Source: an uncultured Clostridia bacterium (GTDB lineage: Bacteria > Bacillota > Clostridia > Christensenellales > UBA1242). Taken from it: 64,000 nt of DNA. The notes under the pieces were generated by a model. That model searched no databases and was not told the DNA's origin. It saw nothing but the letters and a program-made list of their open reading frames with translations. The DNA lies in contig CAKVHF010000001.1 in the NCBI GenBank assembly GCA_934748015.1, positions 188,663-252,662 of the forward strand, written 5' to 3'. The stretch's first letter is position 1. Each line of letters opens with the position of its first letter. Shown piece after piece: positions 13,988 to 51,326 of this stretch. The position numbers and the translations under genes are program-made.

Positions 13988-14029
13988 ATATAAGAGTTTT
14001 GCCTTAGTAGCATGCTCTTATATTTTTTT
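13988..14029 (+). terminator. Intrinsic terminator after the ABC permease gene
   Basis: ATATAAGAG pairs with CTCTTATAT, followed by a T-run. Confidence 0.7.
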
Positions 14030-14150
14030 GTAAATATTATGCAAAATATTTTGAATTTTACAAAATATGTGCAATACTATTCGTGTTATGAATAATATGT
14101 TTTTTGATAACATTTTAATAGGCGAAAATATGTTGTTAGACACTCTAACA

Positions 14151-14276
14151 ATGTCTATTTTTAGTCGTTTTGCTGAAGTAAACGGGGGGGGGGTATTACT
14201 AGATAAAACTAGCAATATCTTAACTTATATAACTAAATATTTCGATCATAACAACTTAAGTCGAGAGTGTTTTTAG
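14151..14276 (+). CDS. Candidate leader mini-ORF A (41 aa) running through the G10 tract and stopping in the terminator loop
   Basis: ATG 14151 lies at the 3' foot of the hairpin. It reads ...EVNGGGVLLDK...NNLSRECF, with TAG at 14274-14276 inside the terminator loop. There is no clear Shine-Dalgarno, so coding status is unproven. Confidence 0.3.
   Translation: MSIFSRFAEVNGGGVLLDKTSNILTYITKYFDHNNLSRECF
14184..14193 (+). repeat. Homopolymeric G10 tract in leader A
   Basis: Counted directly: aac-GGGGGGGGGG-tattactagataa. The homologous tract in copy B is G6. Confidence 0.95.
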
Positions 14277-14296
14277 CCGACTTAGGTTGTTTTTTC
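14250..14296 (+). terminator. Intrinsic terminator/attenuator in leader A
   Basis: AACAACTTAAGTCG (14250-14263) pairs with CGACTTAGGTTGTT (14278-14291), 14 bp including one G-U, followed by TTTTT. Confidence 0.75.
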
Positions 14297-14330
14297 GTTT
14301 GTTATAGAGTGTAGTTGTAATATTGGTAAT

Positions 14331-14415
14331 GGCTGTGGGGCGACCACTGGCGTGGTCTAGTGGGCAAAAACTTTTGCCCACATGCGAGCCTTTCGGCTCG
14401 CATTGCCCCACAGCC
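14331..14415 (+). ncRNA. GC-rich four-way-junction (cloverleaf-like) element, copy A; class unknown
   Basis: P1 GGCTGTGGGGC / GCCCCACAGCC encloses three hairpins: GACCAC-TGGC-GTGGTC, GTGGGCAA..TTGCCCAC and ATGCGAGCC-TTTC-GGCTCGCAT. It is a GC-rich island in AT-rich DNA, with a second copy at 47131-47211. Confidence 0.5.
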
Positions 14416-14516: not shown

Positions 14517-16670
14517 ATGACGAAAAATAGAAAAATGTTGGCATTGGCTATCGCACTGGTTATTATGTTAGTAACCGTCAGTGGCACACTTATTGCAGTG
14601 CTAGTTGCTAGTAACCAGAGTGCCCAGTCCAAGGTGCATGTTAAGTACACTAGCAGTGATGTCAATGTCAAGGTTGAGGCAAAATACTATGTCGGATCAA
14701 CTGGTACAGACATGGTAGACAAGAGCAATAGCAATGCAAAATCAATAGAACTGGATGCTAATAAGACTTCAGGTTCACTTGATCAACTTGCATCTGAGGT
14801 CTCACTAAGCAAAACTAATAGCAAAATAATTTATGAATATAAGTTTACTAACTTATCTACAACTATCCCAGCCACTATTGGTCAGTTGGTTGAAAATGGC
14901 AGTGTAGTTGTTCCAAAAGATAGCAATAACAATGTGAAACTAACATATACATCATCGTCATCATCACTAGGTGCTGGAGCAAGCAGTGATGCTACAACTC
15001 TTAACACCCAAGGTCTTCCAGCAGGAACAACAAGATATGTCTATGTTATTGTGTCTATTGTAGAATTACTTAACGATGTAGACTTCGAGGGTACATTTGG
15101 CTGGGATCTAGCAAAAGGTGAGGCTATTACATCCAATACAACTGGAGGAAGCCAATCTATCGTTGTAGACACCACAGACGTGAAATTGTATAACAAATCT
15201 GCTATGGAGAATATACAATTGGTAGTAGGAGTAGAGAACACCGAACCTGACTACCCAATGATAGAAGATAAATGCTTTACAGGGTGGTATTCCGATTCTG
15301 GCCTTAACAATAAGGTAGAATTTCCAATCATCCCAACCGCCGATACTATACTATATCCTAAGCACGAGACAGCGACAAGCGACCTGACATATATGTACGA
15401 GTCAGAATCTTATGCTGTAGGCGATGACACCTTTGGGTATCAGGGCTCAGAGACAGATATTGTTATTCCTGATGTATATGATGATGGAACAAATGGATTA
15501 CATCCTGTTACAAGGATATCATGGTGTGCTTTTGAGTTTGAAGAAGCGTCCGATATGGTTCAAGTAGACATAAATAGTATCTACATGCCTAACACTATAA
15601 CGGAAATAGGCGAGATGGCTTTTTATGAATGCAGAATATCAAGTATTTTCATTCCGTCCAGTGTAACCATTTTACAGTATACTGCAATTAGTACTTGTCC
15701 AAACTTAACTAATATAGAAGTAGACAGTAATAATGCAACATATCGTAGTGAAAGTAATTGTATAATAGATAGGGCTACTAATGAGTTGGTATATGGCTGT
15801 GTTAACTCTAATATACCAGAAAGTGTCACTAGTATAGGATCTTCTGCCTTTTCTGATTGCAGTGGCTTAACAAGTATAACCATTGGATCAGGTGTCACCA
15901 GTATAGGGGATTCTGCCTTTTCTGGATGCAGTGGCTTAACAAGTATAATAATTCCAGATAGTGTAACTAGTATAAGTGATTCTGCCTTTTCTGGATGCAG
16001 TGGCTTAACAAGTATAACAATTTCCAATAGTGTCACTAGTATAGGATCTTATGCCTTTGATGGATGCAGTGGCTTAACAAGTATAACAGTATCTAGTGGT
16101 AACACAGTATATCGCAGTGAAGGAAATTGTATAATAGAGAAATCCTCTAATACATTAATACTAGGTTGTAAAAATTCAATTATTCCTAGCGGTGTCATCA
16201 GTATAGGGATGAATGCCTTTTTTGATTGCAGTGGCTTAACAAGTATAACAATTCCAGATAGTGTAACCAGTATAGGGGAGAATGTCTTTCGAAATTGCAG
16301 TGGCTTAACAAGTATAACCATTGGATCAGGTGTCACCAGTATAGGGATAAGTGCTTTTTCTTATTGTAGTGGCTTAACAAGTATAACAATTCCAGATAGT
16401 GTCACCAGTATAGAATACTCTGCCTTTTCTGATTGCAGTGGCTTAACAAGTATAACTATAGGTAGCGGAGTGAAACACATAGGAAACAACGCATTTAGCA
16501 ATTGTTCAAAACTAACTAGTGCAACTTTTAAGAATACAACCGGCTGGACTGTAACCACCTCTAGCACAGCAACGACTGGTACAGCAGTAACAATATCAAC
16601 AACTGATCTTGCTGCCAATGCGACACTATTGAAAACTACACATGTAAGTAAGTATTGGAACAGAGCATAG
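14517..16670 (+). CDS. Membrane-anchored surface protein, paralog 2 (717 aa; N-domain + Listeria/Bacteroides-type repeat + long BspA-type LRR array)
   Basis: RBS AAGGAG. Signal anchor MTKNRKMLALAIALVIMLVTVSGTLIAVLVA. Contains CFTGWYSD...LYPK. About 9 near-identical 23-aa LRR units (SVTSIGxSAFSxCSGLTSITI). C-terminal tail NATLLKTTHVSKYWNRA. Confidence 0.85.
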   Translation: MTKNRKMLALAIALVIMLVTVSGTLIAVLVASNQSAQSKVHVKYTSSDVNVKVEAKYYVGSTGTDMVDKSNSNAKSIELDANKTSGSLDQLASEVSLSKTNSKIIYEYKFTNLSTTIPATIGQLVENGSVVVPKDSNNNVKLTYTSSSSSLGAGASSDATTLNTQGLPAGTTRYVYVIVSIVELLNDVDFEGTFGWDLAKGEAITSNTTGGSQSIVVDTTDVKLYNKSAMENIQLVVGVENTEPDYPMIEDKCFTGWYSDSGLNNKVEFPIIPTADTILYPKHETATSDLTYMYESESYAVGDDTFGYQGSETDIVIPDVYDDGTNGLHPVTRISWCAFEFEEASDMVQVDINSIYMPNTITEIGEMAFYECRISSIFIPSSVTILQYTAISTCPNLTNIEVDSNNATYRSESNCIIDRATNELVYGCVNSNIPESVTSIGSSAFSDCSGLTSITIGSGVTSIGDSAFSGCSGLTSIIIPDSVTSISDSAFSGCSGLTSITISNSVTSIGSYAFDGCSGLTSITVSSGNTVYRSEGNCIIEKSSNTLILGCKNSIIPSGVISIGMNAFFDCSGLTSITIPDSVTSIGENVFRNCSGLTSITIGSGVTSIGISAFSYCSGLTSITIPDSVTSIEYSAFSDCSGLTSITIGSGVKHIGNNAFSNCSKLTSATFKNTTGWTVTTSSTATTGTAVTISTTDLAANATLLKTTHVSKYWNRA
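15822..16530 (+). repeat. Intragenic tandem 69-nt (23-aa LRR) repeats, near-identical at the DNA level
   Basis: The core tgcagtggcttaacaagtataac recurs about every 69 nt in two blocks (about 15822-16097 and about 16190-16530). Confidence 0.85.
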
Positions 16671-16807: not shown

Positions 16808-17050
16808 GTGTTTGTATCAAGATGCTAATATGGTGCTGGCAATATTATTTTTTTATTTTTTGTCCGTATTTTTTTGCTTAAATGTTTTAAAATCTCGGTA
16901 GTAATTAATGGTTTTTGGACAAAAATTTACAAAATTTGATATATAATGCCAAAAAGTTTGATTTTTTGGAATAAAAAGAGTAGAGTAAAAACAATTGTGA
17001 AAAATGTTAATAGGCACTATATTTCGTTTGGTTTAGGAGAAAAATTGAAG

Positions 17051-20000
17051 ATGAGATCGATTGCTAAGAACTTATTATATATAGTAGGCATAGTGTGTCT
17101 ACTCTTTTTGTGTTCTTATGCGTTTGTGGCATGTGGGGATGTAAATATATCTAGCCTAACAATAGATATTGATGATAGTTCTTATACATATGATGCAGAT
17201 AGTAAGACTATAAAATTTGCTTATGGCGAATTGGATAATAAGCTAGAAACACTGCTAGCGTCTATTACGGTTACTGCCCATTATGATGACGACTCTGAGG
17301 TTGCAATTATTGAGGGTGATGATTATAAGTTCTCCACAGACATTGTTAAACCTTCTACTGGCAATATTGCACCTGGTAGTTATTATATCCAATACACATG
17401 TGGTGGCAAAAGAGTAAAAATAAATATAGTTGTAGCGTCAACCATTGTTTCTGTCCCACAACTATCGCTAGATACTATCAATGTCGATGAAGGTGGGGTA
17501 ATTAACTTAGAGTACAACAAAGACGGCTATGACCTGCTAGATTTAGGCATATTTGACAATATTTCTGATAAGATCACAATAGGTGGTGATACATTTGCAA
17601 CCGAAGTGGGAGAGTATACAATTACTTTTGCATGTGCTGATCGCAATTATTCTTGGTCAGACGGAACAAAGGGAACAGTTGCTAAGACTGTGACTTGGAA
17701 GATTGTCCCTAAGGCTGTGTTAGTCCCACAATTTACGACCTTATTTTATGAGTATAACCATGACGATAACTACAATGGTATTGCAAATAGTCTAATCGTC
17801 CCTAGTGCTTTTGATAACGATGTATTGACTATTTCCGGTGATCTCAACGCAACTGATGTCGGAGTGTATAATGCAGTAATAAGCCTGAAAGATAGCCACA
17901 ATTATGTATTTGCTGATGGAGCAATGACTAATATCCGTTGGTATATAACTAAGAGGACTTTGGCTGTTCCGACCTTGACTAGCAATCATGTGTCATACTG
18001 TAGTTATGTTGAGCCTTTGGCACAAAGCCCTTATATTAACTTAGACAGTAATTATATTGAAGAAATAATGAACTTTAACACTGGCATCACAGACACAGAA
18101 GGCTTGATCGGTAAGCATACTGCAACTATTGAGATAGATAGTAATTATCGCAATAATTTCCAGTTTGAAGATAATGTATATGTTAAGACTATTGATTGGT
18201 ATCTAGACAAGGGCAGTTATGTTGATATCAATGGTAACTCTCTGTGGACTTTGCCTCAAGATTATGTAATTGCTACAGATAACAATGGCAAAGATATTGA
18301 GTTTGGTGCAGTCTTGGGTGATATAATCGACACAGTTAAGTTGTGCAATGCATGGAAGGATGTCAGCAAGCAAAACCTGGTGGGAGAATATATATTTGAT
18401 AGCAATGCAAAACTATCATATAGCAGTGATTTAGGCAATGCATCTGGCAGTCGTATAATTAATGTCAATATTACATTCCGTCACGGCAGTGGTTATTACA
18501 ATGACGCAATAGTTTCAGTGCCGGTGTTTGTCCACAATATAACTATTGATATTACTCCAGCATGGATTACATCCGCTAGCATGGTGTATGATGGCACAGC
18601 CAAGAGTGTAACGGATAGTGTAGAATGTGACAAAATCTCCAGCATAGAATATTCTTATGCTTATTGTGATGTAGCAACTGGTGAGTACACTCCAATTGAT
18701 GCAAGCGAAATAATAGATGCTGGCACTTATAGAGCAACTGCACACTATGTGTATGACAAGAATCAGTACAGACTATGTATTGGTGATGAGTATTCCGATT
18801 ATTCTACTTATAATTTTGTTATATCCAAGCAGGTTGTTGATGTCGATGATGCTGATATTATATCTGTTGCAAACAACAATACAACATACAATGGCAAATA
18901 TCAGGCTTGCAGTATCTCGCTTAACCCTAAATATAGCCAAGATTTTGATATAACCATTAAGTATTATGCGTTTGACAATCTTATCACAAGTACGCTTTCC
19001 AATCCTAGTGGTTTGCCAAAAGATGTATTGCTAGACATAGACGGCAATGTAGTCAGTTATAGTGTGATTGTAGAGATTGATGCATCCAAGTCTAACAATT
19101 ATGTTCTTTTGAGCAACAACAAGATTTTGGTCAATGGTGGCTTTACTATATCCAAAGCGGTTGTTGTGTTTGATGACTTTATAACTTTGCCGGAGATAAT
19201 TATATATCAGTTGCAAAATACTGATAACTTGACAGTGCCTAGATGTGACTTTAGAGGCGTTAATGAAGAGATAGTAACTGACGCAGAATTTGAGATTGTC
19301 AGCATTGATAATATTGCACGTGATGACGATAGTGTAGAGGTGATCTTTAACATTGTATCCAACAATTACGAAGGCTTGATAGGGGTAATGGCGGAAGTAA
19401 GGCCATTGACAACATCTATCACATATAACAACACTAAGATTTCTTTCCAAGACCTATGTGATATGGAAGAGATTGCGGTCGGTGATGAACTCTTAGTAAC
19501 CACATCGCAAGGGCTAAAACTATATCTAGATGGCGTAGAAACAGATACAATATGTCTTGATACAGCCAACACGGATGTTACTTTGACTATTGCTATTGAC
19601 GAAGAAAATGTTATATTTACTAAAACTTTGCATGTATTTAATCGCAACATAATCCCTAGCATTATCATTACTGACGGCGAAAGATCGATGAGTTGCAATA
19701 TCCACGCAATGTACGAGAATGAATTGGATAATGCTGTAGTCTATAGATATGATTATCTTTCTCGTTCAGTAACAATAACTTTTGATGGCAATATTGCAGA
19801 AAAATATCAATTGTATCTGTCTATAGATAATAGCGATAATATCTTGCTAGAAGACGGCAAAATAACAATTGCAGATGTAAGACTTTGTGACCATATAGAG
19901 GTAACCTACACACAAGATTGCAAAACAATGTCTGCATTGATGTTGTATTTTGAAGAAATCACTGCAATAAATATAGTAAGTGCTACATACAAGAATTTAA

Positions 20001-21115
20001 CTGACGGCACAATAAATAATCTTGAACTTGCAAGAAATATTGCAGATAACGAATATAACTTTGCGATAAATAATGCTTATGTGCAGGCTATATTAGTTGA
20101 ACTAAACAATACACAATATTCGCACACTATTAATTGTATAGATGACTTAGAGTGGGATGTTAAAGATCAGAGTATGTCGCAAAATCTTGTGTTAAAAGTA
20201 TATGATGGCAACAATGCTTGTGTAGAGATGAGAACAATTGCATTGACCTACAATTTTGCGTACTCCAAGAGTAAAATAAGAAACGACTATAACTACATCA
20301 CTACAACAACTGGCGTTGTAAGTAATAGTGTTGCATATCAAGGTGTTGATTGCACTATAGAGGGAGAGGTTGAGTATACATTGTCCGAGAGTGGATTATA
20401 TAGCCTAGATATGTCATTGACTGACGGGGAGTATATTATTCATGATAGCGTAGTTGTTAATTATGTATGTGATATATCCGAGTATATCTCTTATCAAGAC
20501 ACAGTAGATGTAAGGGTTAGATATTTTAGCGATTTTTCGATTTATTGTGCGTGTGCAGATGATTGTGTAATAACAATAAAAAATAGCGATATGTTTGGTG
20601 ATCACAGTAGAGTTGCTAATTACTTGATATGTGACATTTGCGGATTTGATTTTGCATCCGATATCACAGAGGATAATGTTGAAGATTATCTGGCAGGTGA
20701 CAGCGTCCAATACTCTGGTGATTGGACAATAACTGGTTGTAGATTGATAGAAGCAGACTGCAAATATTTACACCTACAACTAACCAACAGTAACACTGGT
20801 GAGGTGGAGTATGTAGTACTATATTTGGGTGAGACAAGCACTTATACAGAGATGTTGTCATCATTTGTTTCTTATAATGGCGACAGTTATTATCTGACTA
20901 AATCGTCAGATGGCGTATACAATTATATTTCTTGGGCTAGTGGCAAAATATTAAAACTTAACGATATAACAACCAACATAGATATTGTTAATGTTGCCAA
21001 TTCTGATTACACTACACAATCTAGCCGTGTTGTCAATGTTGGAGGAGCAGTTGCAGTAGAGATAACTGTGTGCAAAAATTCTAAAACTTGCAATATTTTT
21101 ATATTAGTCGATTAG
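17051..21115 (+). CDS. Very large putative surface lipoprotein (1354 aa) with MBG-like repeats
   Basis: ATG 17051 sits 10 nt after GGAG. Signal peptide MRSIAKNLLYIVGIVCLLFLCSYAFVAC ends in a lipobox-like FVAC. Repeated about 90-aa modules resemble MBG (YGX-type) adhesin repeats (VYDGTAKSV, GEYTITFACADRNYSW..., GTYRATAHYVYD, TYNGKYQ). Confidence 0.7.
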   Translation: MRSIAKNLLYIVGIVCLLFLCSYAFVACGDVNISSLTIDIDDSSYTYDADSKTIKFAYGELDNKLETLLASITVTAHYDDDSEVAIIEGDDYKFSTDIVKPSTGNIAPGSYYIQYTCGGKRVKINIVVASTIVSVPQLSLDTINVDEGGVINLEYNKDGYDLLDLGIFDNISDKITIGGDTFATEVGEYTITFACADRNYSWSDGTKGTVAKTVTWKIVPKAVLVPQFTTLFYEYNHDDNYNGIANSLIVPSAFDNDVLTISGDLNATDVGVYNAVISLKDSHNYVFADGAMTNIRWYITKRTLAVPTLTSNHVSYCSYVEPLAQSPYINLDSNYIEEIMNFNTGITDTEGLIGKHTATIEIDSNYRNNFQFEDNVYVKTIDWYLDKGSYVDINGNSLWTLPQDYVIATDNNGKDIEFGAVLGDIIDTVKLCNAWKDVSKQNLVGEYIFDSNAKLSYSSDLGNASGSRIINVNITFRHGSGYYNDAIVSVPVFVHNITIDITPAWITSASMVYDGTAKSVTDSVECDKISSIEYSYAYCDVATGEYTPIDASEIIDAGTYRATAHYVYDKNQYRLCIGDEYSDYSTYNFVISKQVVDVDDADIISVANNNTTYNGKYQACSISLNPKYSQDFDITIKYYAFDNLITSTLSNPSGLPKDVLLDIDGNVVSYSVIVEIDASKSNNYVLLSNNKILVNGGFTISKAVVVFDDFITLPEIIIYQLQNTDNLTVPRCDFRGVNEEIVTDAEFEIVSIDNIARDDDSVEVIFNIVSNNYEGLIGVMAEVRPLTTSITYNNTKISFQDLCDMEEIAVGDELLVTTSQGLKLYLDGVETDTICLDTANTDVTLTIAIDEENVIFTKTLHVFNRNIIPSIIITDGERSMSCNIHAMYENELDNAVVYRYDYLSRSVTITFDGNIAEKYQLYLSIDNSDNILLEDGKITIADVRLCDHIEVTYTQDCKTMSALMLYFEEITAINIVSATYKNLTDGTINNLELARNIADNEYNFAINNAYVQAILVELNNTQYSHTINCIDDLEWDVKDQSMSQNLVLKVYDGNNACVEMRTIALTYNFAYSKSKIRNDYNYITTTTGVVSNSVAYQGVDCTIEGEVEYTLSESGLYSLDMSLTDGEYIIHDSVVVNYVCDISEYISYQDTVDVRVRYFSDFSIYCACADDCVITIKNSDMFGDHSRVANYLICDICGFDFASDITEDNVEDYLAGDSVQYSGDWTITGCRLIEADCKYLHLQLTNSNTGEVEYVVLYLGETSTYTEMLSSFVSYNGDSYYLTKSSDGVYNYISWASGKILKLNDITTNIDIVNVANSDYTTQSSRVVNVGGAVAVEITVCKNSKTCNIFILVD

Positions 21116-24800: not shown

Positions 24801-25941
24801 ATGAATACAACAAGAAAAATGTCTTTAGCCTTGGTGCTATTGTGCGTGACACTGGCTATTACTGTGATGACATTAGGATTGGTATTGGTTTCTGGAACTC
24901 AAGATGTAATAACCGACCTAGATATTCATTATGCGGGGGGGGGGTGTCACTTTTGAAGTAGGTGATGACTGCATTAACAAGAGTGACTTTGCAACCATCA
25001 AAGTTGACAAGGTTACTAAGACTGCTGTCGTACAACAACCAGCCAATCCCAATCAGTTAGGCAAAACATTTGAGGGCTGGTACACAGATAGTAGTATAAC
25101 TCAGAAGGTAGATAAGTTCCCTGTAACTCTATCTAAGGGTGATGTGCTATATGCCAATTATTATGATGCATCCACATGGCTGACATTGTCTTGGAATGCT
25201 ACAACTAGTTCATACTCTGTCGAAAGGAGTAGCTCGTCTTCTGCAACAGAGGCAATAATTCCAGATATATATGACGATGGGACACATGGGGTTGCAGTGG
25301 TTGATACTATAGGATCATATTCGTTGACTGATGTAACAACTTTGACCAATATTTATTTGTCTAACAACATCACAACAATTAGCGAGAGGGCTTTTTCCGC
25401 TTGTGCTAATGTAACTGCAATTAATGTTCCGGAAAATGTTGCTACAATCGGTGCATATTGGCTACAAAATATGAAAAAGCTAAAAACCATAAATTGGAAT
25501 GCAATAAATGCGGAGTACACTGCAGAATTTTCGCAAACATATAGTGTTGGTTCGCAATACGGAATTGACTTTGTTGTTGGTTACAAAGTGCAGAGTATTC
25601 CTAGATATTTGTTCAATCCACAATCTTCAAAATCTTATGTTAAATCTATTGATATGACCAATGCTACATCGCTAAAGGAAATTGGATCTTGGGCTTTTGG
25701 TGGTTGTTATAAGATAACATCTCTTACAATTCCTGCCAGTGTAGAATTGATTGGAGCATATGCTTTTACCGAATGTACTGGTTTATCCAGTATAACATTT
25801 GAAGTATCAGATAACTGGTATAGATTTTCATCCGAGACAGCAACCACTGGTGGAACTGCGTTGTCTTTAGGCTCTGCTTATACTGATGCTAAATGGATAA
25901 GAGATACTTATGCACAATATTGGTGGAGAAGAATTTCATAA
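24801..25941 (+). pseudogene. Surface protein paralog 3, split by a G10 tract (currently frameshifted; candidate phase-variable gene)
   Basis: ATG 24801 follows AAGGAG and encodes the signal anchor MNTTRKMSLALVLLCVTLAITVMTLGLVLV. This frame ends at TGA 24954-24956, just after G10 (24935-24944). The -1 register continues as VTFEVGDD...FEGWYTD...LRR units...YAQYWWRRIS through 25941. G9 or G12 would fuse both parts. Confidence 0.75.
24935..24944 (+). repeat. Homopolymeric G10 tract inside the paralog 3 coding sequence
   Basis: Counted directly: cattatgc-GGGGGGGGGG-tgtcac. Confidence 0.95.
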
Positions 25942-46814: not shown

Positions 46815-46848
46815 AACTATCCTATAGATAATATGGGATAGTTTTTTT
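46815..46848 (+). terminator. Intrinsic terminator after hemW
   Basis: AACTATCC pairs with GGATAGTT, followed by a T-run. Confidence 0.75.
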
Positions 46849-46975
46849 ATAAAAATTTGTGAAATATTTAATTTTATTTTGAAAAAATATATGATTGTGA
46901 CATAATATAAGTATGAGGAAAAATGTTTGCATTTATAGTTTAATAAGAGATTTTACATTGTTAAATGTTTTAACA

Positions 46976-47098
46976 ATGGCTTCTTTTAGGCAAGATGTAA
47001 TAGTTCAACGGGGGGTATTACTAGATAATTCTAGTATTATCATAACCGATATAACTCAATATAACGATAATAACAACTTAAGTCGATGGTGTTTCTAG
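46976..47098 (+). CDS. Candidate leader mini-ORF B (40 aa) running through the G6 tract and stopping in the terminator loop
   Basis: ATG 46976 lies at the hairpin foot. It reads ...VQRGVLLDN...NNLSRWCF, with TAG at 47096-47098 in the terminator loop. No clear Shine-Dalgarno. Confidence 0.3.
   Translation: MASFRQDVIVQRGVLLDNSSIIITDITQYNDNNNLSRWCF
47010..47015 (+). repeat. Homopolymeric G6 tract in leader B
   Basis: Counted directly: caac-GGGGGG-tattactagataa. Confidence 0.95.
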
Positions 47099-47118
47099 GC
47101 AACTTAGGTTGTTTTTTC
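47072..47118 (+). terminator. Intrinsic terminator/attenuator in leader B
   Basis: AACAACTTAAGTCG (47072-47085) pairs with CAACTTAGGTTGTT (47100-47113), followed by TTTTT. Confidence 0.7.
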
Positions 47119-47130
47119 GTATTTTTTATA

Positions 47131-47211
47131 GGCTTTGGGCGACCACTGTCGTGATCTAGCGGGCGTTTCCGCCCACCATGCGAGCCTTTTTGGCTCGCAT
47201 GACCCAAAGCC
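47131..47211 (+). ncRNA. GC-rich four-way-junction (cloverleaf-like) element, copy B; class unknown
   Basis: P1 GGCTTTGGG / CCCAAAGCC encloses GACCAC-TGTC-GTGATC, GGGCG-TTTC-CGCCC and ATGCGAGCC-TTTTT-GGCTCGCAT. P1 differs from copy A by a compensatory G:C to T:A change. Confidence 0.5.
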
Positions 47212-47313: not shown

Positions 47314-49389
47314 ATGATAACAAAAAACAGAAAAATGCTAGCGTTGATAATTGCATTGGTTATAACATTGGTTTCGGTCAGTGGGACTCTTATTGCAGTA
47401 TTGGTTATCAGCAACCAGAGTGCACAATCAACAGTTCATGTTAAATATACCAGTACTGATGTTAACGTAAGAGTAGAAGCTAAGTATTATGTAGGTACGA
47501 CAGGTACAGACATGGTAGACAAGAGCAATAGCAATGCAAAATATCTAGATTTAGATGCTAATAAAACATCAGGTTCTCTTGATCAACCATCTAACGAAGC
47601 GGTCGAGCTAAGCAAAACTAATAACAAAATAATCTATGAATACAAGTTCACCAACTTATCTACAACTATCCCAGCAACTATAGGTCAGCTGGTCGAAAAT
47701 GGCAATGTTGTTGTTCCAAAAGACAGCAATAACAATGTAAAACTAACATATACATCGTCTTCAACATCCCTAGGTTCAGGAGCAACTAGTGACGCAACTA
47801 CACTTAATACCCAAGGACTTCCTGCAGGTACAACAAGATATGTCTATGTTATTGTGTCTATTGTAGAACTACTTAATGATGTAGATTTTTCTGGCAGTTT
47901 TGGTTGGGATCTAGCGAAAGGTGAGGCTATTACATCCAATACAACTGCAGGTAGTCAATCTATCGTTGTAGACACCACAGACGTGAAATTGTATAACAAA
48001 TCTGCTATGGAGAATATACAATTGGTCGTAGGAGTAGAGAACACCGAGCCGGACTACCCAATGATAGAAGACAAATGTTTTACTGGTTGGTATACTGATG
48101 AAAGTTTAGAAACTAAAGCAGTTTTTCCATTAACTCCAACTGCTGAAACCAAATTGTATCCTAAGTATGAAACAGCAACAAGTGATCTTACTTATGTGTA
48201 TAATGAAGCATCACAAAGCTATTTTGTTGGGGATGGAACTACATCATATTCCGGGTCGACAAAAAATATTGTTATTCCTGATACATATAACAATGGAACC
48301 AATGGATTACATGCGGTAACATGTATTAACGATTGTGCGTTTTTAAAAACTAGTATTATTAGTGGTATTGTAATTCCAGGTTCTGTTAGTAATATAAGTA
48401 TAGGAGATAATAGGGCATTGAAAGGCGGCATAACTACAGTGTCTGTATCTTCGGCTAATCCTGTATATAAGAGTGAGAATACATGTATAGTACGCAAGGC
48501 TGATAATTGCTTAATATACGGAGGCCAGAAATATGATATACCAAAATATGTAACATCAATATATGATTATGCATGTTTTGGTTCATATGCTACAACAATT
48601 GCATTAAGAGAAGGTGTTGTTAGTATTGGAAGGCATGCTTTTTATAATAATAAGTTTGCTGAGCTTATTATTCCATCTAGTGTTGTCAATATTGATGAAT
48701 TGGCATTCTCTTCTTGTATGCACTTAAAAAGGGTTACTTTTAAAGAAGGCTTACTTAGTATAGGAAAAGAGGCATTTAGAGGCTGTGTTTCTCTAACAAG
48801 TGTTACAATTCCGAGCACAGTAACCAGTTTGGATCGTCTAGCTTTTATTAATTGTACAGCATTAAATTCTTTTTGGGTTTCAGATAATAACAAAGTGTAT
48901 AAGGGTGAAAGTAATTGTGTAATGTTAAGAGCAGAACCTACTGTTTTGTATTGTTGTTTTGCAAATGGTACTATTCCTGCCTATATAACTAAAATAGGTG
49001 ATTATGCATTTTACTATAATACGGCACGTGGCTCGCTTCATATACCAAAATCTGTAACGGAAATAGGTGTTAGTGCTTTTGAATCTTCTTCAATTAAGGG
49101 TAGCGTCGTTATACCAGATAGTGTAATTACTATTGGAAATTCTGCTTTTAAAAGCTGTAACATAACAAGTGTGACAATTGGTAATGGCGTTAAAAGTATA
49201 GGGGTAAACGCTTTTTATTATTGTGGTAACTTAACAAATATTACATTCAATACAATAACTGGCTGGACTGTCACAAATGACAGTAGCGCAACCACTGGAG
49301 ATCCAGTTACCGTGTCAAAATCTGATACAAAAGCTAATGCGACACTACTAAGAACAACACATGCAAGTAAATATTGGCACAGGGCATAG
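47314..49389 (+). CDS. Membrane-anchored surface protein, paralog 5 (691 aa)
   Basis: Signal anchor MITKNRKMLALIIALVITLVSVSGTLIAVLVI, the family N-domain, CFTGWYTD...LYPK, a divergent BspA-type LRR array, and the tail ANATLLRTTHASKYWHRA. Confidence 0.85.
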   Translation: MITKNRKMLALIIALVITLVSVSGTLIAVLVISNQSAQSTVHVKYTSTDVNVRVEAKYYVGTTGTDMVDKSNSNAKYLDLDANKTSGSLDQPSNEAVELSKTNNKIIYEYKFTNLSTTIPATIGQLVENGNVVVPKDSNNNVKLTYTSSSTSLGSGATSDATTLNTQGLPAGTTRYVYVIVSIVELLNDVDFSGSFGWDLAKGEAITSNTTAGSQSIVVDTTDVKLYNKSAMENIQLVVGVENTEPDYPMIEDKCFTGWYTDESLETKAVFPLTPTAETKLYPKYETATSDLTYVYNEASQSYFVGDGTTSYSGSTKNIVIPDTYNNGTNGLHAVTCINDCAFLKTSIISGIVIPGSVSNISIGDNRALKGGITTVSVSSANPVYKSENTCIVRKADNCLIYGGQKYDIPKYVTSIYDYACFGSYATTIALREGVVSIGRHAFYNNKFAELIIPSSVVNIDELAFSSCMHLKRVTFKEGLLSIGKEAFRGCVSLTSVTIPSTVTSLDRLAFINCTALNSFWVSDNNKVYKGESNCVMLRAEPTVLYCCFANGTIPAYITKIGDYAFYYNTARGSLHIPKSVTEIGVSAFESSSIKGSVVIPDSVITIGNSAFKSCNITSVTIGNGVKSIGVNAFYYCGNLTNITFNTITGWTVTNDSSATTGDPVTVSKSDTKANATLLRTTHASKYWHRA

Positions 49390-50655: not shown

Positions 50656-50732
50656 CGGGGTGTAGCGCAGTTTGGTAGCGCACATGATTTGGGATCATGG
50701 GGCCGGGAGTTCGAGTCTCTTCACCCCGACCA
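50656..50732 (+). tRNA. tRNA-Pro (anticodon UGG)
   Basis: Manual cloverleaf: acceptor CGGGGTG/CACCCCG, anticodon arm CATGA-TTTGGGA-TCATG, T-loop TTCGAGT, encoded CCA. Confidence 0.9.
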
Positions 50733-50749
50733 CTTATCTAATGCAATTT

Positions 50750-50826
50750 GGGCCTTTAGCTCAGTTGGTTAGAGCAACCGGCTCATAACCGGTTTGTCCG
50801 GGGTTCAAGTCCCTGAAGGCCCACCA
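50750..50826 (+). tRNA. tRNA with CAU anticodon (elongator Met or lysidine-modified Ile2)
   Basis: Acceptor GGGCCTT/AAGGCCC, anticodon arm CCGG-CTCATAA-CCGG, T-loop TTCAAGT, CCA. The body resembles Firmicute tRNA-Ile2(CAU), but identity cannot be fixed by eye. Confidence 0.85.
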
Positions 50827-50854
50827 AAAAATTGTTTTAGATATTTATATATAT

Positions 50855-50931
50855 GGCCTGGTAGTTCAGTTGGTTAGAACGCTAGCCTGTCACGCTAGAG
50901 GTCGAGAGTTCGAGTCTCTTCCAGGTCGCCA
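50855..50931 (+). tRNA. tRNA-Asp (anticodon GUC)
   Basis: Acceptor GGCCTGG/CCAGGTC, anticodon arm CTAGC-CTGTCAC-GCTAG, T-loop TTCGAGT, CCA. Confidence 0.9.
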
Positions 50932-50939
50932 TTATGTCT

Positions 50940-51015
<76 letters not shown>

Positions 51016-51050
51016 TATTACATTATCAATTGATAGATAACATATTATAT

Positions 51051-51126
51051 GCTGGTGTAGCTCAATAGGTAGAGCAGCTGACTTGTAATCAGCAGGTTGT
51101 GGGTTCGATTCCTATCACCAGCTCCA
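51051..51126 (+). tRNA. tRNA-Thr (anticodon UGU)
   Basis: Acceptor GCTGGTG/CACCAGC, anticodon arm GCTGA-CTTGTAA-TCAGC, T-loop TTCGATT, CCA. Confidence 0.9.
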
Positions 51127-51241
51127 ACCAAACATCGAAAAAGTTAAATTGAATATAAAATAACTTATTTTTTTTATTTTTTCATATTCAACTCTATCTC
51201 CTTTCTAAATTTACCTTTTTTTGATGTTTGACAACTTATTT

Positions 51242-51326
51242 GGGAGAGTTCCAGAGCGGCCAAATGGAACAGACTGTAAATCTGTCGTCTCAGACTTCGT
51301 TGGTTCGAATCCAGCCTCTCCCACCA
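51242..51326 (+). tRNA. tRNA-Tyr (anticodon GUA), class II with a long variable arm
   Basis: Acceptor GGGAGAG/CTCTCCC, anticodon loop CTGTAAA, long variable arm, T-loop TTCGAAT, CCA. Confidence 0.88.

Follow-up and report, generated by a model that had tools for sequence, protein, structure and literature searches.

A 64,000-nucleotide (nt) window of contig CAKVHF010000001.1, from an uncultured Clostridia bacterium of the human gut, contains two copies of a leader cassette (copy A, 14051-14415; copy B, 46879-47211), each standing in front of a gene for a BspA-type leucine-rich repeat (LRR) surface protein. The cassette is probably a phase-variable leader-peptide transcription attenuator of the adhesin gene that it precedes. 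This reading draws on the anatomy of the cassettes, on a frame-to-stop geometry shared by four cassettes from three lineages, on the lack of selection on the encoded peptide, and on a G8/G9/G10 polymorphism of a G tract within the leader.

In the proposed mechanism, transcription would start at a promoter common to the gene family and would first pass through a short leader open reading frame (ORF) that contains a G homopolymer, whose length, and with it the reading frame, would be altered by replication slippage. In two of the three frames the ribosome would meet a TAG or TAA 7-11 nt past the tract and would dissociate over 40 nt short of an intrinsic terminator; the terminator hairpin would then form, transcription would end and the adhesin would not be made (OFF). 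In the third frame the ribosome would translate through the 5' arm of the terminator and stop at a TAG in its loop, the hairpin would be blocked, and RNA polymerase would read through into the adhesin gene (ON). More speculatively, a second hairpin directly past the tract may pause RNA polymerase until the ribosome catches up. We infer three steps here: translation of the leader ORF, termination at the hairpin, and relief of termination by translation.

Cassette anatomy and stop-codon geometry

Each cassette lies between the family promoter and a BspA-type LRR gene, copy A before paralog 2 and copy B before paralog 5, and each starts after the intrinsic terminator of the preceding gene. The order of parts is the same in both: a TG-extended promoter, a mini-ORF with an internal hairpin, the G tract, a post-tract hairpin, the terminator and a four-way junction (cloverleaf). 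About 100 nt of AT-rich, unconserved sequence then lead to the Shine-Dalgarno sequence and ATG of the adhesin gene. Lengths below are in base pairs (bp), codons or amino acids (aa).

Copy A
14051..14078, + strand: promoter-like site, read from the sequence; TTGAAT, 16-nt spacer, TG-c-AATACT
14067..14276, + strand: leader mini-ORF, 69 codons, or 62 from ATG 14088 just past the -10 element; stop TAG 14274-14276 in the terminator loop
14130..14154, + strand: upstream hairpin inside the mini-ORF; G.U pairs on the + strand only
14184..14193, + strand: G10 tract, ON frame here; polymorphic (G8/G9/G10)
14190..14221, + strand: post-tract hairpin with OFF-frame stops TAG 14200-14202 and TAA 14204-14206; -9.4 kcal/mol, z = -3.8
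14250..14297, + strand: predicted intrinsic terminator, stem 14250-14263/14278-14291 and T run; -16.9 kcal/mol, z = -4.0
14331..14415, no strand assigned: four-way junction; P1 10 bp, P2 6 bp, P3 9 bp, P4 9 bp; 62% GC
14517..16670, + strand: paralog 2, BspA-type LRR surface protein, 717 aa; PF13306, E = 1e-76

Copy B
46879..46906, + strand: promoter; -35 TTGAAA, 16-nt spacer, TG-extended -10 CATAAT; predicted start ~46913
46913..47098, + strand: leader mini-ORF, 61 codons; ATG 7 nt past the -10 element; stop TAG 47096-47098 in the terminator loop
46956..46978, + strand: upstream hairpin inside the mini-ORF, CATTGTTAAA / TTTAACAATG; -8.1 kcal/mol, z = -4.1
47010..47015, + strand: G6 tract, ON frame
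47014..47041, + strand: post-tract hairpin with OFF-frame stops TAG 47022-47024 and TAA 47026-47028; -11.4 kcal/mol, z = -4.1
47072..47119, + strand: predicted intrinsic terminator, stem 47072-47083/47102-47113 and T run; -13.4 kcal/mol, z = -3.5
47131..47211, no strand assigned: four-way junction; P1 9 bp, P2 6 bp, P3 7 bp, P4 10 bp; 62% GC
47314..49389, + strand: paralog 5, BspA-type LRR surface protein, 691 aa, with an N-terminal transmembrane/signal segment; PF13306, E = 6e-50

Copy B is a diverged duplicate of copy A. The two align by blastn with 68% identity over ~400 nt (14023-14415 versus 46842-47211) and also by MAFFT, in agreement with a preliminary description of this DNA that had reported a second composite leader upstream of paralog 5. 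All six blocks listed there as invariant recur in the MAFFT alignment, and Pfam identifies the genes directly upstream of copy B as LepA and a HemW-type radical-SAM protein, which confirms the stated position after lepA-hemW. The spacer between terminator and cloverleaf had been given as 34 and 12 nt; the 22-nt difference holds, and the lengths become 32 and 10 nt by the boundaries used here. Cloverleaf and terminator blocks occur at only these two places within the 64-kb window, where the 17-mer GGGCGACCACTGNCGTG has 2 matches against 0.05 expected. Downstream of the junctions the 5' untranslated regions (UTRs) are not significantly similar, whether compared with one another or with that of paralog 4, and a blastn search of the cassette against plasmids and phages gave no match.

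The promoter of copy B is the best promoter-like site of its region in a promoter scan (10/12 matches plus TG), and the promoters of L125, L128 and each of the five paralogs align with it. The corresponding site of copy A scores below the threshold of the scan tool; it aligns with the family promoters, and its region is 79% identical over 66 nt to the promoter region of paralog 4. In both copies the mini-ORF starts 7-10 nt past the -10 element (counted from ATG 14088 in copy A). The G tracts begin 104-106 nt downstream of the predicted -10 elements, thus not in or next to the promoter spacer, and they are outside the adhesin coding sequence, with the ATGs of paralogs 2 and 5 lying ~300 nt further downstream. 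Between the cloverleaf and the adhesin gene, the promoter scan found no promoter-like site on the + strand.

In copies A and B alike, both wrong frames stop 7 and 11 nt past the tract, inside the invariant block GGGTATTACTAGATAA, leaving 47 and 43 nt from the end of the stop codon to the terminator stem. The stop of the ON frame ends 27 nt into the terminator hairpin, which has 12-14 bp and holds the in-frame TAG within its loop. The terminator of copy B includes one U.G pair that, as read from the sequence, forms on the + strand only. Compensatory changes had been claimed for the upstream hairpin and for P1 of the cloverleaf, and both were found: a G-C to A-U double change distinguishes the hairpin of copy B from that of copy A, and in P1 a G-C to U-A change is accompanied by the loss of one pair.

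The same geometry recurs in two further lineages, L127 and L178, which were reached through the N-terminal domain (N-domain) of the adhesins. In L127, whose N-domain is 46% identical to that of the window family, the cassette has a canonical AGGAG Shine-Dalgarno sequence and ATG, a G10 tract and a post-tract hairpin (~106-127); 47 and 58 nt separate the ends of the OFF stops from a terminator of -17.3 kcal/mol, the ON stop lies 15 nt inside it, and the G10 of this contig corresponds to the OFF frame. The L178 cassette has a TG promoter found by the scan tool and is homologous to window copy A in its upstream half and to L127 in its post-tract half. Here G10 is ON and yields a 73-codon ORF that ends inside a branched terminator of -32.8 kcal/mol followed by T7; the OFF frames end 60 and 49 nt short of this terminator, and the post-tract hairpin lies at ~868-890. 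Thus four cassettes from three lineages share one architecture in largely different sequence, with OFF stops 43-60 nt upstream of the terminator and ON stops 15-43 nt inside its hairpin. In all four, unrelated sequences included, the post-tract hairpin begins in the last G's of the tract and holds the OFF-frame stops; its role could be to pause the polymerase, to stimulate ribosomal frameshifting or to enhance slippage. The L178 cassette also has an unusual neighbour, as it follows the 3' end of a 16S rRNA gene and a terminator (1-474 and 634-663), with no 23S rRNA gene there; the rRNA genes of this lineage appear to be unlinked.

The leader peptide and the variable G tract

The reading frame of the mini-ORF is kept, while its peptide sequence is free to change. 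An open frame of this kind occurs in only 0.3% of shuffled sequences. Four bases elsewhere make up for the 4-nt difference between the G tracts of the two copies, and the lengths of the two remaining indels are divisible by 3, so that the in-frame state of both mini-ORFs noted in the preliminary description is borne out by the alignment and by the indel sizes. The ratio of non-synonymous to synonymous change (pN/pS) between copies A and B is 1.0 for the whole mini-ORF and 0.86 for the part past the tract. That description had also named homology of the mini-ORFs to a larger protein as an observation that would speak against a regulatory cassette. No Pfam or NCBIfam match was found, and only same-species matches exist among 5.8 billion proteins. 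Because an open frame and frame-preserving indels coincide with a pN/pS of ~1 and with no protein homologue, the mini-ORF bears the signature of a "ruler" peptide, of which the frame is kept and the sequence is not under selection, and not that of a protein with its own function.

Comparisons among strains give a similar picture. A strain from a Hadza sample (L124) differs from the window by 7 substitutions, 6/7 of them non-synonymous and all upstream of the tract, with no substitution in the ~330 nt from the tract to the adhesin ATG. In L123, 4 substitutions are present between the G tract and the adhesin ATG, none of them in a stem. The 7 substitutions of L124 are packed into 74 nt (14104-14177), with none in the other ~500 nt compared, which looks more like a recombination patch than clock-like divergence.

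Two further observations concern the leader itself. An internal peptide, MSIFSRF (14151-14171), begins at an ATG in the 3' arm of the upstream hairpin of copy A; its counterpart in L178 (825-845) and in the Hadza strain is MPIFSRF, and the copy B sequence MASFRQD is not alike. We take MSIFSRF, as a lead only, to resemble the ErmC leader peptide MGIFSIF. The stretch of the copy B leader from the post-tract hairpin to the terminator also has four ATAAC motifs spaced 9-10 nt apart (47033-47076), and copy A retains two or three of these.

The tract of copy A varies in nature. An exact-sequence look-up of its peptide forms found G10 on 11 contigs and in the divergent Hadza strain, G8 on 3 contigs and G9 on 1. 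At the DNA level, three assemblies from different samples (L170, L171, L172) match the window throughout 586 nt apart from the tract, which is G8 instead of G10, and L123 carries G9. Peptides of further G-length variants and mini-ORFs of the L127 and L178 types were not in the protein collection by exact look-up. G or C runs of 10 would be expected 0.007 times in 64 kb; two are present, both in this gene family.

Several points weigh against a phase-variable attenuator. The G6 tract of copy B is the same in 3/3 readable assemblies (L001, L176, L177), with no length variants, and may thus represent a slow or fixed-ON switch; moreover, metagenome assemblies may misreport the length of a homopolymer. 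No Shine-Dalgarno sequence precedes the first ATG of either window mini-ORF, and initiation could be leaderless or could take place at ATG 14130 and TTG 46958, both inside the upstream hairpin. The terminators have long loops, of 14-18 nt, and stems of only moderate stability, and a consensus terminator scan, which allows loops of only 3-8 nt, flagged neither window terminator. The attenuator model leaves the cloverleaf unexplained. Finally, the RNA polymerase of Bacillus-like Bacillota tends to outrun the ribosomes (PMC13323073, PMC7858274), and for this reason ribosome-mediated antitermination is disfavoured unless a pause is built in. The post-tract hairpin, kept in 4/4 cassettes, could speculatively be such a pause and restore coupling.

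The same G-tract switch could also operate without the hairpin, or nearly so, if OFF frames were silenced by Rho-dependent polarity on the untranslated leader. In such frames, over 300 nt of RNA upstream of the adhesin start would go untranslated, and Rho is reported to affect phase-variable leaders in Clostridioides difficile (PMC7446863). However, the ON-frame ribosome also leaves ~240 nt before the adhesin start, where Rho would retain access, and the leader has ~30% GC and is not C-rich. Polarity would also need neither a hairpin nor a T run, whereas the ON-frame stop lies inside a hairpin followed by a T run in 4/4 cassettes despite their different sequences. A switch based on Rho is therefore unlikely.

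The four-way junction and the remaining alternatives

The junction downstream of the terminator is a real structural feature, and compensatory changes preserve it. Copy A folds with -65.6 kcal/mol on the + strand and -67.9 on the - strand (z = -10.7), copy B with -48.5 and -60.3 kcal/mol, respectively (z = -7.5), and for both strands, folded as RNA or as DNA, junction z-scores lie between -7.5 and -12. Counted on hand-defined helices, since the MAFFT junction alignments are out of register and tool-based pair counts are unreliable, 34/34 pairs of copy A are Watson-Crick pairs, and in copy B 30/32 pairs form on the + strand and 32/32 on the - strand. Besides the changes in P1, which include the coordinated loss of one pair, P3 shows an A-U to G-C change and the coordinated loss of two pairs; the divergence of the junction thus totals two double compensatory substitutions and three coordinated pair deletions. 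The 62% GC of the element contrasts with 19-30% in its surroundings, and 80-nt stretches with at least 55% GC are confined in the window to the two junctions, the tRNA cluster and two coding spots.

Evidence on the strand of the junction points both ways, with the wobble pairs and loops in slightly better agreement with the minus strand. Both single-sided stem changes in copy B would be C.A on the + strand and G.U on the - strand, and among the minus-strand loops are two GAAA and, in L123, a GAGA. Conversely, the adjoining hairpin and terminator hold plus-specific G.U pairs, conservation spans the region from promoter to junction and then ends, and no conserved minus-strand promoter was found near the junction.

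Two known types of element were considered for the cloverleaf and rejected. A tRNA-like element does not fit, as the stems are longer than such an element allows, the loops comprise just 4 nt and ARAGORN found only the tRNA cluster at 50656-51326, with no call on the junction. An intrinsic terminator does not fit either, as no T run follows on either strand. Rfam 15 gave no relevant match at the gathering threshold in the whole window, or at E <= 10 in both cassettes and in L127, L178 and L179 on both strands. Cloverleaf pattern scans, exact and gapped, gave one chance match in GTDB representative genomes (L002) and 40 in high-GC contigs of JGI metagenomes, none of the latter folding as a junction; in IMG/VR, a 14-mer had chance matches only and longer patterns matched nothing or one unrelated palindrome. 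P1 could act as terminal inverted repeats, a feature resembling miniature inverted-repeat transposable elements; no target-site duplication is visible in the flanks, and the two copies in the 64-kb window are both at the homologous site.

A comparable structure precedes a family member in L179. At 58-148 of this contig, ~90 nt before the ATG, a GC-rich four-way junction (-51.3 kcal/mol, z = -9.5) combines a P1 of 11 bp with hairpins of 13, 6 and 6 bp, a stem-length order that mirrors that of the window junction. No significant sequence similarity to the window junction was found in either orientation, and the contig ends 57 nt upstream of the junction, so that any upstream ORF would lie beyond its end.

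As neither L127 nor L178 has a cloverleaf and both keep the core, the junction is, judged by sequence, separable from the switch. The preliminary description had treated the composite as a single unit. Its core of mini-ORF, G tract and terminator stands as a unit, and the indivisibility of the whole does not. At best guess, the junction is an accessory element, a stabilising or insulating 5'-UTR module on read-through transcripts, and it may be regarded as a candidate for a new structured element with a narrow evidence base.

Alternatively, the four-way junction might be the functional centre, either as a structured minus-strand (antisense) RNA or as a small palindromic mobile or recombination element, with mini-ORF and terminator incidental to it. 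The stem changes that favour G.U over C.A on the minus strand, the GAAA and GAGA loops on that strand, the greater minus-strand stability of copy B, the marked GC content of the element and the mirrored junction of unrelated sequence in L179 would agree with this. It is nevertheless very unlikely. No conserved minus-strand promoter was found, and no T run is present on either side. Only two copies occur in 64 kb, both at homologous positions and with no target-site duplication visible in the flanks, and pattern and blastn scans found no copy in GTDB representatives, JGI metagenomes, IMG/VR, plasmids or phages. The logic of upstream ORF, G tract and terminator is kept in L127 and L178 without a junction, and the frame geometry would be left unexplained.

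It is a highly improbable alternative that the mini-ORF encodes a functional phase-variable small protein, the hairpin being its own terminator and the adhesin gene having a separate promoter. The ORF is open in both copies and is called as a gene in public assemblies, and a short block, LTM.IFSRF, is common to the window and L178. However, a pN/pS of ~1 between the copies and the predominance of non-synonymous substitutions (6/7) in the Hadza strain argue against a conserved product, as do the lack of any homologue outside the species and of a family match. In L127 and L178 the part past the tract is wholly different, yet it has the same end point relative to the terminator. Nor does the + strand offer a promoter-like site from the terminator to the adhesin gene.

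That the region is the decaying remnant of a former gene or a 3' UTR without a regulatory role is close to refuted: only the patchy identity between the copies would favour it, against no homology to a larger protein, substitutions and indels that are compensatory and frame-preserving, 0 substitutions in the Hadza strain and 4 non-stem ones in L123 between tract and adhesin ATG, and an architecture kept in other lineages.

The adhesin family, known systems and wider meaning

The five paralogs of the window are 70-90% identical in their N-terminal domain. This domain belongs to a broad family, with 516 representatives in a full HMMER scan; word-index protein searches found almost nothing outside the species, and a protein-pattern scan of JGI metagenomes with the N-domain found no relatives. 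The absence of the cassette from paralogs 1, 3 and 4, as reported before, was confirmed. Paralogs 1 and 4 keep the family promoter, and paralog 3 (24801-25941) has a G10 of its own at 24935-24944, inside the coding sequence just past the signal/transmembrane segment. From ATG 24801 its frame reaches a TGA right after the tract, so that paralog 3 would be OFF in this assembly; a tract of G9 or G12 would join this frame to the LRR body. One family thus appears to have two slippage switches, an intragenic one (paralog 3) and a leader-peptide one (paralogs 2 and 5). The distribution among the paralogs, together with divergence that preserves structure and frame, supports the earlier proposal of an optional regulatory cassette on part of the family.

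Other features of the family and its surroundings were also recorded. Orthologues of paralog 2 have 705, 711 and 728 aa in different samples (L170, L171, L173), differences that presumably stem from LRR copy-number variation. The orthologue of paralog 4 in L128 has an in-frame TAA within the N-domain. Directly downstream of paralog 2, a 1389-aa ORF (16946-21115) without a Pfam or NCBIfam match may be co-transcribed with it and thus also be under the switch. The host scaffold has 1.08 Mb and 36% GC, with a Bacillota-like gene order (hrcA-grpE-dnaK-dnaJ and dnaG-sigA-trmK).

A precedent for the attenuator proposed here exists in Streptococcus gallolyticus, where the number of GCAGA repeats sets the frame of a leader peptide upstream of the pil1 and pil3 loci, as shown genetically (Danne et al., 2014, PMC3894217). 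A peptide stop 39-49 nt before the terminator gives low expression, and isolates with the stop at least 28 nt upstream behave as low expressers; with a stop in or at the hairpin, the ribosome destabilises the terminator and expression is high (PMC3894217). The window cassettes have the same succession of promoter, leader ORF with a simple repeat, terminator (predicted in the window) and surface-structure gene. They likewise have a stop whose position depends on the frame, ~40-50 nt upstream of the hairpin in the predicted OFF state and in or near it in the predicted ON state, and their host is also a gut-associated Gram-positive bacterium. Because this anatomy matches pil1/pil3 point by point (PMC3894217), a mechanism of the pil1 type can be named for the window. 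The regulatory reading of the preliminary description is retained and would be refined by this logic, not named there, in which the frame sets the position of the ribosome.

There are also differences. The window cassettes have a homopolymer, G6-G10, where the streptococcal leaders have 13-25 GCAGA units, and 1/3 frames is ON, with hard-wired stops in both others just past the tract, whereas 2/3 frames are ON in pil1. Directly next to the tract there is a conserved hairpin, no Shine-Dalgarno sequence precedes the mini-ORFs of the window copies, and a GC-rich four-way junction lies past the terminator. The regulated genes encode BspA-type LRR proteins, in contrast to the sortase pili of pil1. 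No organism besides S. gallolyticus was found in the searchable literature to use repeat-driven leader-peptide attenuation.

In the pyrBI and trp leaders of Escherichia coli, translation of a leader peptide at a terminator hairpin decides between read-through and termination, and a pause hairpin may synchronise ribosome and polymerase; the post-tract hairpin may be the counterpart of the latter. The trp system is also a topic of the S. gallolyticus study (PMC3894217). The input differs, being the supply of nucleotides or charged tRNA in E. coli and a heritable, reversible change of DNA length in the window, where regulatory codons are absent from the leader and an alternative antiterminator helix was not identified. 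The cwpV and flgB loci of C. difficile phase-vary after initiation through termination in the 5' leader, driven by DNA inversion by a recombinase. Control in the window would likewise act in the 5' leader after initiation, by slippage in a translated leader instead of inversion.

Closest in gene content is Ca. Mycoplasma girerdii, whose BspA-like surface proteins phase-vary through intragenic repeats (PMC5476646). Both are host-associated bacteria with small genomes, multiple copies of BspA-like LRR proteins and slippage-type ON/OFF states visible in metagenomes. Paralog 3, with a G10 within its own gene, follows the mycoplasmal pattern; in paralogs 2 and 5 the tract is instead part of a leader ORF upstream of the gene, and its predicted effect is on the termination of transcription.

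A wider proposal can be made only tentatively, as a possibility short of the likely: a modular, portable phase-variation leader that serves a large adhesin family in a gut lineage with small genomes and comprises two additional parts. One would be the tract-abutting hairpin as a polymerase pause or frameshift stimulator, the other the four-way junction as an undescribed class of structured RNA, or of single-stranded DNA, with a role in gating or stabilising the transcripts that read through. If true, the hairpin would make ribosome-mediated antitermination workable where transcription outruns translation, and the junction class would be present in two lineages with unrelated sequence and possibly in opposite orientation.

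For the attenuator as such, the same logic built from a homopolymer, for another class of adhesin and in an uncultured gut bacterium, suggests that the design is more general, and it may have evolved more than once. Surveys of phase variation that are limited to repeats in genes or promoters miss such cases. As the predicted ON/OFF state of an adhesin could be read from metagenomes by counting G's, the cassette would offer a handle on surface variation in an uncultured organism.

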